Notes: generated by a model not told the origin, from the sequence alone. 32,000 nt of DNA from Staphylothermus hellenicus DSM 12710 (GCF_000092465.1 NC_014205.1:870001-902000), one strand, 5' to 3'; numbered from the stretch's first letter, positions 17,928 through 19,751 are shown. Numbers and translations are program-made.

Positions 17928-19751
17928 TTATGTAGTTATTGCCTTGGCTAGTCCGGGCGGTGTATCTACTGGGTATCCCTGTTTTACTCCTAGATGATAT
18001 GCTATGAGTTGTAAGGGGATAATAGTGGTTATTGGCGATAATATTTTATGGGTGGGTTTAACCTTAACTACTTCGCCATAGCCTGTTTCATCGTGTGTGA
18101 TTGTTACTAGGAAACCGTTCTTTGATAATACATATTCAGCAACCCTATTATATAGAGGTAAAGCTTCTTCCTCAATAGGCTTTATTATAATTACTGGATA
18201 ATTATCTCTTATAAGAACCAGCGGTCCATGTCTTAGCTCACCTAACTGAACACCTTCTGCATGTATTATGGATGCTTCCTTAAATTTTAGAGAAGCCTCT
18301 AGTGCTACGGGATAATTTATTCCACTACTTGATACATACATGTTTCTCCACCCTAACAGTTTCTCAGCGATCTTTTCCGCAGTATTATCATAGACCTTTA
18401 GATCTTTTCTTAATGCTTTAGCTGTCCCACGTATTTTCTCCGTGATCCCTGCATATTCGTCTCGGCTAAGCTTACCAGTATATAATCCAGTATATCCAGC
18501 AAGTAAAGCTAGTGCGACAAGGCTTGACACAAAAGTTTTTGTTGCAGGAACAGCTAATTCAGGGCCAGCACCTATTGGTAAATAAACATTTGATTCGAGC
18601 GAGAGACGAGAACCAACAACGTTTGTGACTCCTATAATTACTGCTCCATACTGCTTAGCAAGCTTTACACTCTTAATAACATCGCTTGTTTCCCCACTCT
18701 GACTAATAGCTATAATGACCGTGCCGGTTGAAACATTTTTCAAAGCATAATAGGGGAATTCAGCCGCACTCACTACATTGACATTTATATTTGCTAGATC
18801 AGTGAAGTAATATGATGAAACCATTCCTGCATGAAGACTTGTACCATTACCAATAACATATACGTTTTTAGCACCATAGATTATCATTGCTGCTAATCGT
18901 AGATATTTCTCCATCAATGAATATGTTGTCCTGACCATAGAGTCTGGTATTTCATATATTTCCTTCAACATATAATGTGGATACCCTGCTTTTCCAACTA
19001 GTTCTACTTGGTATTTCACTCTCTTCCTAATCAATTTCTCAATACTTGTTGGCTCCATGTTTTCAGCATTAATAATCCTGATATTATCTATGCTTATCTC
19101 AGCAGCCATACCCTCCTCAAGTATTAATGCTTCATCAGCATAACCATATAGACTTGGAATATCGCTTGATAAATAAACACATTCATTACTATGAGTTAAC
19201 CCGACAACAAGGGGTTGACCATTATGAGCAACATAGAATGATTCCTTCCCAGCAATAATGGCTGCGATACCATACATGCCTCGGAGCTCACGCATATACC
19301 TAGCAGTAGCTTCCAAAGGATCTCTTCTCTCCCTAAACACAGCTTCCTCTAATAAATGAGCATAAACCTCTGTATCCGTTCTAGATGCGAAGCTGTGTCC
19401 TTTCCTAACCAGTTCTTCCTTGTAAGCCTCATAGTTTTCAATTAAACCATCCCCCACAACAGCGATCTTCCCGGTACAATCAGTTAGAGGATGAGTATTC
19501 TCAATGGTTGGCCATCCACGACTAGCATATCTTGTATGCCCCAGCACTATTCTCGATGAAATATTAAATAGGCCTTCATCAGCAATCTTTTCAAGATGCC
19601 CAGGCTTCTTCCTAACAACTATATTGCCCATATCATCAAGAAAAGCTACGCCGACACCATCATAGCCTCGGTAGAGGAGGCGTCTAAGCCCCTCAAACAC
19701 TACTCTCCCACGGATCTTCTCCCTACAAATAACACCAAATATTCCCCCCAC
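17928..19751 (-). CDS. GlmS-like glutamine--fructose-6-phosphate aminotransferase homolog with a degenerate glutaminase site and an intact isomerase (SIS) part
   Basis: It aligns without gaps to E. coli GlmS from the GTG at 19751, giving 608 aa against 609.

- **Isomerase residues kept:** SQSGETSD, KFKEASIIHAE, ELRHGPL and the C-terminal LAKAITT.
- **Glutaminase changes:** MCGI has become (M)GGI and VVHNGIIEN has become VVGDGLIEN.

The 26 upstream codons in the track ORF are probably not coding. Confidence 0.85.
   Translation of the reverse strand: MGGIFGVICREKIRGRVVFEGLRRLLYRGYDGVGVAFLDDMGNIVVRKKPGHLEKIADEGLFNISSRIVLGHTRYASRGWPTIENTHPLTDCTGKIAVVGDGLIENYEAYKEELVRKGHSFASRTDTEVYAHLLEEAVFRERRDPLEATARYMRELRGMYGIAAIIAGKESFYVAHNGQPLVVGLTHSNECVYLSSDIPSLYGYADEALILEEGMAAEISIDNIRIINAENMEPTSIEKLIRKRVKYQVELVGKAGYPHYMLKEIYEIPDSMVRTTYSLMEKYLRLAAMIIYGAKNVYVIGNGTSLHAGMVSSYYFTDLANINVNVVSAAEFPYYALKNVSTGTVIIAISQSGETSDVIKSVKLAKQYGAVIIGVTNVVGSRLSLESNVYLPIGAGPELAVPATKTFVSSLVALALLAGYTGLYTGKLSRDEYAGITEKIRGTAKALRKDLKVYDNTAEKIAEKLLGWRNMYVSSSGINYPVALEASLKFKEASIIHAEGVQLGELRHGPLVLIRDNYPVIIIKPIEEEALPLYNRVAEYVLSKNGFLVTITHDETGYGEVVKVKPTHKILSPITTIIPLQLIAYHLGVKQGYPVDTPPGLAKAITT

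Follow-up and report, generated by a model that had tools for sequence, protein, structure and literature searches.

In a stretch of 32,000 nt from the genome of Staphylothermus hellenicus DSM 12710 (GCF_000092465.1, NC_014205.1:870001-902000; hereafter the window), a gene was found which specifies a relative of GlmS, the glutamine-dependent synthase of glucosamine 6-phosphate (GlcN-6-P), without the N-terminal cysteine. This Cys-less paralogue, designated GlmS*, is probably a glutamine-independent and reversible deaminase/isomerase of GlcN-6-P, and possibly of galactosamine 6-phosphate (GalN-6-P), by which the product of the deacetylase NagA would be converted to fructose 6-phosphate (Fru-6-P) and NH3. 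Activity as a deaminase, direction in vivo, and substrate are inferred. An earlier, sequence-only reading of the window had already proposed the gene as a candidate for a nagA-linked GlcN-6-P deaminase, and this proposal is now backed by neighbour counts, by operons combining nagA with genes of the phosphotransferase system (PTS), and by gene essentiality in Sulfolobus.

The open reading frame (ORF) of GlmS* extends from a GTG at positions 19749-19751 to a TAA at 17928-17930, and its 5' codons GTG-GGG-GGA-ATA are translated to (M)GGIFGVI. A Pfam scan detected GATase_6/GATase_7 and two SIS domains, and no DNA-binding or signalling domain. The protein thus consists of a domain resembling class-II amidotransferases of the N-terminal nucleophile (Ntn) type, located approximately at residues 1 to 240 and called the N-domain here, followed by two SIS isomerase domains. 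Residues 2-606 could be aligned to residues 2-607 of E. coli GlmS with 32% identity. ORF, Pfam domains and end-to-end alignment agree with the full-length GlmS homologue described in the sequence-only reading, except that the alignment, thought to be free of gaps, contains several short insertions or deletions. The closest homologue in database searches is a protein of Staphylothermus marinus F1 (92% identity). Since the score of GlmS* exceeds the threshold of the curated GlmS model, TIGR01135 (489.3 bits for this equivalog, cut-off 418.05), it is annotated publicly as GlmS; the cut-off of NF001484 is surpassed as well (495 versus 381). In a structural model obtained with AlphaFold2 (pLDDT 85.5), both domains are folded, and a fold search with this model matched the closed form of E. 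coli GlmS (PDB 2J6H) with a TM-score of 0.85.

To this overall similarity stands opposed a specific pattern of residue replacements, which was followed in an alignment of 118 of the best 120 database homologues of GlmS* and by comparing positions conserved to at least 93% in two canonical archaeal clades with those of the Cys-less clade. The nucleophile Cys1, present in all canonical comparators, is Gly in 116 of the 118 homologues, and both exceptions are N-terminal gaps. Asn98 of the oxyanion hole, which is Asn in every canonical comparator, is Asp in all 118 sequences. Trp74 is replaced by Tyr and His77 by Arg without exception, Thr76 by Ser in 109 of 118 cases, and His97 is relaxed. Further changes fixed in the Cys-less clade are R599P, N600G, those at positions 498-499, R472S, and Q408T, and the inter-domain and C-tail region carrying fixed changes is the part which in E. 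coli GlmS forms the ammonia channel and the lid. The C-tail reads PPGLAKAITT in GlmS* and PRNLAKSVTVE in the E. coli enzyme. The N-terminal cysteine is imperative for the function of E. coli GlmS (PMC11822699); with both Cys1 and Asn98 gone, the known mechanism of glutamine hydrolysis is therefore unavailable to GlmS*.

The isomerase part presents another picture. Residues of the isomerase and phosphate-binding site (S303, S347, Q348, S349, T352, K485, E488, H504, and K603 in E. coli numbering) are invariant in the clade, and, as far as can be judged from the sequence, the sugar-phosphate isomerase chemistry looks fully intact. The loss of Cys1 and Asn98 as well as the retention of the isomerase catalytic residues, here Glu492, His508, and Lys603, had been recognized in the sequence-only reading, and all three observations extend to the clade. 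Its verdict of a dead amidotransferase domain holds only in part: Cys1 and Asn98 are indeed gone, but the ligands of the pocket are invariant and several replacements are fixed. Arg26, Arg73, His86, Gly99, and Asp123 are found throughout the alignment. Because Arg73, Asp123, His86, and Arg26 do not vary and Asp98, Tyr74, and Arg77 became newly fixed, it would be wrong to regard the N-domain as merely dead. In the Cys-less clade, N-domain identity amounts to 0.83 of C-domain identity, against 0.94-0.97 in canonical clades. By this measure, the N-domain of the Cys-less clade changes at a slightly higher rate in comparison with the C-domain. Constraint on it is still clear.

Among the best 120 homologues, which originate from Desulfurococcales, Acidilobales, and Sulfolobales, all with a complete N-terminus start with (M)GGIF, and x-Asp-Gly replaces His-Asn-Gly in every one. 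Orthologues restoring M-C-G, which the sequence-only reading had named as a case against itself, do not occur among the close homologues; instead, the loss of Cys1 and Asn98 together is clade-wide. An exhaustive comparison by HMMER with 1.84 billion cluster representatives placed the whole close group in one 50% cluster and yielded seven further Cys-less representatives with 33-44% identity. One of these is from Caldivirga and has both Gly1 and Asp98. The remaining top matches were all canonical (MCGI...HNG), with at most 39% identity to GlmS*. A neighbour-joining tree unites the Cys-less proteins in a single clade nested inside archaeal canonical GlmS. Judged from these sequence relationships, Cys-less GlmS is an old, monophyletic subfamily widespread in Thermoprotei, and the view of the protein as an unusual intermediate form had to be abandoned in the light of the 118 homologues and the tree.

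More divergent Cys-less relatives were also encountered. In P0123, derived from a metagenome-assembled genome (MAG) of the Desulfurococcaceae, and in the metagenomic sequences P0139, P0125, and P0200, isomerase residues are lost in addition. The changes are E488G and D123G in P0123, and K485I, H504Y, and Q348P in P0139. A sub-branch of these relatives may be fully non-catalytic or have a different chemistry.

The genomic context was analyzed in 80 metagenomic loci retrieved by clade-specific motifs, in which ORFs were called and all neighbours clustered (88 loci overall). Dereplication of the GlmS* proteins at 85% identity left 27 lineages in which the gene is flanked by 1.5 kb or more of sequence in each direction. 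NagA is the commonest neighbour family, present in 22 of the 88 loci. For nine of the 27 lineages, nagA is located no more than 1 kb from the GlmS* gene, in convergent, divergent, or overlapping co-directional arrangement, and the proteins of these nagA-linked lineages share between 43% and 92% identity with the query. In Desulfurococcaceae MEX13E, nagA precedes the GlmS* gene by 30 nt on the same strand. Several lineages harbour clusters in which GlmS* is accompanied by a PTS of the mannose/Aga family and a ceramidase-like amidohydrolase. In one of them (L158) the order of genes is HPr, EI, nagA, GlmS*, ceramidase-like, GFO/IDH/MocA oxidoreductase, and fused EIIC-EIID, with nagA and GlmS* overlapping by 4 nt. 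PTS systems are rare in Crenarchaeota. The linkage to nagA and PTS genes is a catabolic or salvage signature, and no GlmM or GlmU partner adjoining the Cys-less gene was seen in the loci examined. In bacterial nag/aga clusters, the step after the deacetylase is performed by AgaS or NagB-II (PMC3668189); by analogy, the clusters of PTS genes, nagA, and GlmS* are regarded as their archaeal counterpart.

Genes of the PTS (EIIB-sorb, fused EIIC-EIID, EIIA-man, HPr, EI) adjoin GlmS* in Thermoprotei-like contigs, namely L003, L142, L148, L151-153, L158, L159, L162, and L163. On L003 (Logan SRR5453780_3464, 1-10024), GlmS* is 100% identical to the S. marinus F1 protein and followed by PTS genes, not by nagA, an arrangement which may reflect a difference between strains or an assembly chimera. 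The Ceramidase_alk-like gene (neutral/alkaline ceramidase N-terminal) recurs beside GlmS*, nagA, and PTS genes in ten loci (cluster 17), for example at 1395-2753 of L006, at 3087-4319 of L003, and at 9835-11106 of L158, 5 nt downstream of GlmS*. Its product may be an N-acyl amino-sugar amidohydrolase. One locus, L089, contains on the minus strand (8944-10017) an extra gene for a 357-aa SIS-only protein resembling GlmD and AgaS, about 2 kb from GlmS* and adjoining nagA. Both architectures, GlmS* and SIS-only, therefore coexist in one amino-sugar locus.

Organisms with a Cys-less and a canonical protein allow the two to be compared genetically. In an essential-gene study of Sulfolobus islandicus M.16.4, three arCOG00057 (GlmS) paralogues are listed (PMC6249222), two of which, M164_0465 and M164_1770, could be identified here. 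According to this study, M164_0465 (1755 nt, 584 aa) is non-essential and has the orthologues SSO1268, ST2545, and Msed_1603 and none in Sulfolobus acidocaldarius, while M164_1770 is essential and located between a mevalonate kinase gene and a gene similar to GlcNAc-1-P uridyltransferase (GlcNAc, N-acetylglucosamine) (PMC6249222). M164_0465 was assigned to the Cys-less type by the 1755-nt gene size given there and the downstream ABC ATPase gene, as for the Sulfolobus solfataricus protein P0102. The GlmS of S. acidocaldarius encoded in the context of the M164_1770 type (mevalonate kinase/GlmU-like/ThrRS-editing) is canonical, MCGI...HNG. Thus, where both forms coexist, it is canonical GlmS that fulfils the essential function in biosynthesis, and the Cys-less paralogue can be spared in laboratory medium. 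Identity of the Cys-less paralogue with ST2245, a GlcN-6-P/GalN-6-P epimerase, was considered and rejected, as ST2245 is orthologous to SSO2281/Saci_0151 and belongs to the PGI/PMI family (arCOG00052); by the orthologues listed, the Cys-less gene is the distinct ST2545/SSO1268. Canonical GlmS of the MCGI type was detected in Sulfolobus, Aeropyrum, Acidilobus, Caldisphaera, Stetteria, Pyrolobus, Pyrofollis, and Thermofilum, and the idea that classical Crenarchaeota are devoid of any canonical GlmS is ruled out by its presence in Sulfolobus, Aeropyrum, Acidilobus, Pyrolobus, Stetteria, and Thermofilum.

Homologues of the GlmS isomerase domain are known to act as amino-sugar-6-phosphate deaminases, among them AgaS (PMC3668189) and archaeal GlmD, which participates in chitin catabolism of Thermococcales (PMC3512248). 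In the pathway favoured here, amino sugars would be released by the products of the neighbouring glycosidase and phosphorylase genes, phosphorylated by the kinase of the ROK family, and deacetylated by NagA. GlmS* would then convert the NagA product according to GlcN-6-P + H2O <-> Fru-6-P + NH3, and in the PTS-linked relatives conversion of GalN-6-P to tagatose 6-phosphate is possible. The N-domain, folded and with a remodelled, conserved pocket, would probably close over or regulate the isomerase site, or bind a ligand or ammonium.

Several points weigh against this interpretation. A biochemical or genetic characterisation of any member of the Cys-less clade was not found in the searchable literature, and GlmS* scores far below the cut-offs of the models for GlmD (NF041128, 74.8 versus 580) and NagB-II (NF046059, 118.8 versus 430) while exceeding that for GlmS. 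Purifying selection on the N-domain is clear, and the invariance of Arg73 and Asp123, the ligands of the glutamine alpha-carboxylate and alpha-amino groups, is not predicted by a purely vestigial domain. About one third of the informative lineages, those of the Desulfurococcus/Thermosphaera type, lack nagA at the locus and have the gene among conserved housekeeping genes. In the corresponding loci (L004, L007, L100-L133) genes for a class Ib aminoacyl-tRNA synthetase, orotidine monophosphate decarboxylase, and polyprenyl synthase are strictly conserved beside GlmS*, and a glutamate dehydrogenase gene is located about 4.5 kb downstream. This neighbourhood may hint at a different, perhaps anabolic, use of the same enzyme. 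Finally, if GlmS* is the only GlmS-family enzyme in Staphylothermus, Desulfurococcus, and Thermosphaera, this would argue for an anabolic role too. A sole glmS in the genome had likewise been named by the sequence-only reading as a case against itself, and in Staphylothermus it would require the reaction to proceed in the direction of GlcN-6-P on free ammonia, unless the cell depends on NagA salvage.

The alternative which survives best is accordingly an ammonia-dependent, mainly anabolic GlcN-6-P synthase, the sole GlmS-family protein in Desulfurococcaceae, which uses Fru-6-P and free NH3/NH4+, plentiful in peptide fermenters, to supply UDP-GlcNAc. Ammonium might be captured for the isomerase site by the pocket of Asp98, Tyr74, and Arg77. 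The reaction of NagB- and GlmS-type isomerases is chemically reversible, the N-domain residues are strongly conserved with Asp98 fixed, and the housekeeping neighbourhood of the Desulfurococcus/Thermosphaera orthologues would fit. Furthermore, the best 120 relatives of a canonical GlmS of Desulfurococcales (at least 48% identity) include Aeropyrum, Acidilobus, Stetteria, Pyrolobus, and Pyrofollis, but not Staphylothermus, Desulfurococcus, or Thermosphaera. Since canonical GlmS of Sulfolobus, with 46% identity to that query, also falls below the end of this list at 48%, the absence in the three genera is suggestive, not conclusive. Against a mainly anabolic role speak the tie to nagA in the Staphylothermus locus and eight other lineages, with PTS uptake genes in more, and the very poor ability of E. 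coli GlmS to use free ammonia. Moreover, the Cys-less form is no substitute for the canonical one, since M164_1770 is essential despite the presence of M164_0465. On balance, this alternative appears rather unlikely. Slightly better, and still with considerable reservation, we rate a more specific proposal in which GlmS* alone would connect Fru-6-P with GlcN-6-P in Desulfurococcaceae such as Staphylothermus, which may be without canonical GlmS, and would be a true ammonia-dependent synthase, its N-domain rebuilt as an ammonium- or ligand-binding module that gates or feeds the isomerase site. In such a module, Gly1, Asp98, Tyr74, and Arg77 would be new, and Arg73 and Asp123 retained. If true, an amidotransferase would have evolved backwards to an ammonia-utilising enzyme and kept its channel domain.

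Improbable by comparison is a glutamine-dependent synthase with a non-canonical glutaminase, in which, for instance, Gly1 through its free alpha-amine would join with Asp98 to activate water or to act as nucleophile. The invariance of Arg73, Asp123, His86, and Arg26, the joint fixation of Gly1 and Asp98 in place of drift, the passing of the curated glmS equivalog threshold, and the closed, GlmS-like arrangement of the two domains in the model are in accordance with it. We know of no class-II (Ntn) amidotransferase working without an N-terminal cysteine, and an oxyanion hole with a carboxylate would be expected to disfavour the tetrahedral oxyanion. The channel-gating Trp74 and the channel residues of the C-tail are replaced, the gene context is catabolic, and the Cys-less paralogue is dispensable beside canonical GlmS in Sulfolobus. 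The cysteine, as mentioned, is imperative in E. coli GlmS (PMC11822699). Marginally less credit still is given to a regulatory, non-catalytic pseudoenzyme, which might, for example, sense GlcN-6-P/Fru-6-P or an amino acid and control amino-sugar genes. A conserved ligand pocket within a catalytically disabled N-domain might serve this purpose, and the very divergent relatives P0123 and P0139 did lose isomerase residues. Yet the invariance of all isomerase and phosphate-binding residues in the GlmS* clade points to a functional enzyme, the Pfam scan yielded no domain for DNA binding or signalling, and the catabolic nagA clusters need a deaminase step for which no other candidate is encoded beside them. 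An artefact of sequencing, assembly, or start codon assignment, with the true protein starting M-C-G, can be dismissed: a run of six G residues does lie at the start codon, and the ORF is open in 5' direction to an ATG at 19829 with a Cys codon four codons before the GTG, but this Cys does not fall in register and lacks conservation, Gly1 and Asp98 recur throughout the homologues, and the same N-terminus is specified by other codons elsewhere, by GTG-GGC-GGA in S. marinus, which interrupts the G run, and by ATG-GGC-GGT or ATG-GGA-GGC in other genera, the Gly codon varying between GGG, GGC, and GGA by genus. The statement of the sequence-only reading that one sequencing error cannot explain both changes agrees with these observations.

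The features of the Staphylothermus locus are compiled in Table 1. GlmS* and nagA are convergent, as noted before, and separated by 17 nt between the stop codons, not by 18. The start of nagA is probably not position 16702 but the ATG at 16744, in agreement with the gene call in S. marinus, which gives a protein of 388 aa. The TATA-like box 5' of GlmS* is also kept in S. marinus, and a transcript starting from it would be leaderless or have a short leader. A hairpin followed by a T-run at 19864-19883, 3' of the preceding GH130 gene, suggests that GlmS* constitutes a separate transcription unit. Both elements are consistent with initiation at the GTG and with a transcript of its own for GlmS*. 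The GH130 protein is only distantly related to the beta-1,2-mannobiose phosphorylases of solved structure. GlmS*, the convergent nagA, and the block of sugar-handling genes are conserved in the same arrangement in S. marinus, and the block (19896-27875) looks like a glycan salvage island, possibly for N-glycans or beta-mannoside-GlcNAc, feeding NagA. It also contains genes for a methyltransferase and a SpoIIM-like membrane protein, likewise conserved with S. marinus. On the other side of nagA, a gene for a 743-aa protein was found whose product matched no Pfam or NCBIfam entry; it has a hydrophobic segment at the N-terminus, contains a long linker rich in Thr, Ser, and Pro, and is probably secreted or anchored to the S-layer. 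Between this gene and nagA sits a pair resembling HEPN/MNT toxin-antitoxin systems, in which the gene for the HEPN protein overlaps that for a small nucleotidyltransferase. The S. marinus equivalent is located elsewhere in the locus.

Table 1. Features of the GlmS* locus in the window (positions counted from the first nucleotide)
Feature	Position	Strand	Remarks
743-aa protein	13103..15334	-	
HEPN protein	15893..16303	+	
Small nucleotidyltransferase	16285..16638	+	Motif GSxxxG...DxD
nagA, N-acetylglucosamine-6-phosphate deacetylase	16744..17910	+	TIGR00221, 307 bits (cut-off 225.65); Pfam Amidohydro_1
GlmS*, Cys-less GlmS paralogue	17928..19751	-	607 aa; ORF and translation
Schiff-base Lys603 (E. 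coli Lys603)	17943..17945	-	In altered C-tail PPGLAKAITT
Isomerase catalytic stretch	18228..18278	-	Glu492 (E. coli Glu488), His508 (E. coli His504); both invariant in clade
Asp codon GAT at oxyanion-hole Asn98 position	19449..19451	-	VVGDG; Asp in 118/118; Gly99 kept
Q-loop R-Y-A-S-R	19518..19532	-	Motif HTRYASRG; Arg73 kept; W74Y, T76S, H77R
Gly codon GGG at position of Ntn nucleophile Cys1	19746..19748	-	Gly in 116/118 clade members
TATA-like A/T-rich box, putative	19778..19788	-	TAATTATTATT; about 30 nt 5' of GTG
GH130 glycoside phosphorylase (beta-mannoside phosphorylase family)	19896..20996	-	PF04041, 5e-83; upstream neighbour of GlmS*, same strand
Asparaginase_2 Ntn hydrolase (glycosylasparaginase/isoaspartyl peptidase type)	22216..23181	-	PF01112, 1.6e-76
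Putative glycoside hydrolase	24617..26833	-	GHL6 and GH42 trimerisation domain; weak PDB matches
ROK-family sugar kinase (glucokinase/N-acetylhexosamine kinase type)	26901..27875	-	

Many genomes and MAGs of Thermoprotei carry GlmS* annotated as glutamine--fructose-6-phosphate transaminase via the curated GlmS model, and GlmS* is therefore a case for reannotation that reaches a whole archaeal class. Should the protein prove to be a deaminase, then UDP-GlcNAc supply, amino-sugar catabolism, and nitrogen release have been given the wrong sign in metabolic reconstructions of these organisms, and GlmS* would fill the NagB step in crenarchaeal salvage of GlcNAc and N-glycans. Its loci also point to amino-sugar clusters with a Man/Aga-type PTS in Thermoprotei. 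If Desulfurococcaceae are truly without canonical GlmS, the source of GlcN-6-P in these glycoprotein-coated hyperthermophiles becomes a question. Irrespective of the reaction, GlmS* is a natural experiment, in which a class-II amidotransferase domain and its ligand pocket were kept for hundreds of millions of years without the nucleophile.

Comparison with known systems shows GlmS* to be closest to GlmS/GFAT (EC 2.6.1.16; TIGR01135; E. coli GlmS, PDB 2J6H), with which it shares length, two-domain architecture, fold, and isomerase site, and from whose glutaminase pocket it keeps Arg26, Arg73, His86, Gly99, and Asp123. It differs by the loss of Cys1 and Asn98, the replacement of Trp74, Thr76, His77, Arg599, and Asn600, and the relaxation of His97. 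It is also a paralogue separate from the canonical, essential GlmS of Sulfolobus, and linked to nagA and PTS genes instead of glmU or glmM. By homology, architecture, and score of the hidden Markov models, GlmS* is a member of the GlmS family, but it fails the defining catalytic features Cys1 and Asn98.

GlmD of Thermococcus kodakarensis, NagB-II of the Shewanella type, and the GalN-6-P deaminase/isomerase AgaS of E. coli are homologous to the C-terminal half of GlmS*, and matches in the PDB over this half include 8eol, termed glucosamine-6-phosphate deaminase, and 1j5x. Tandem SIS domains with the isomerase residues of the GlmS type are common to all, as is the neighbourhood of a NagA/AgaA deacetylase and, for some relatives of GlmS*, a PTS of the Man/Aga family; the reaction proposed for GlmS* would be the same. 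While these enzymes have about 330 aa and no amidotransferase domain, GlmS* has 607 aa with a conserved N-domain of 240 aa, and phylogenetically it is derived inside full-length archaeal GlmS and not from these families. Classical NagB (Pfam Glucosamine_iso) shares the proposed reaction and the position after NagA but has an unrelated fold, and no match to Glucosamine_iso was obtained for GlmS* in the Pfam scan. The retention of an inactivated domain has its parallel in beta-lactam synthetase and carbapenam synthetase, class-II amidotransferase homologues without Cys1 and relatives of asparagine synthetase B. In these enzymes, as presumably in GlmS*, a glutaminase-inactive Ntn domain is kept on a second domain that is still active. 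Family and chemistry are different, and whereas the second domain of the synthetases gained a new reaction, that of GlmS* probably carries out its parent reaction in part or in reverse.

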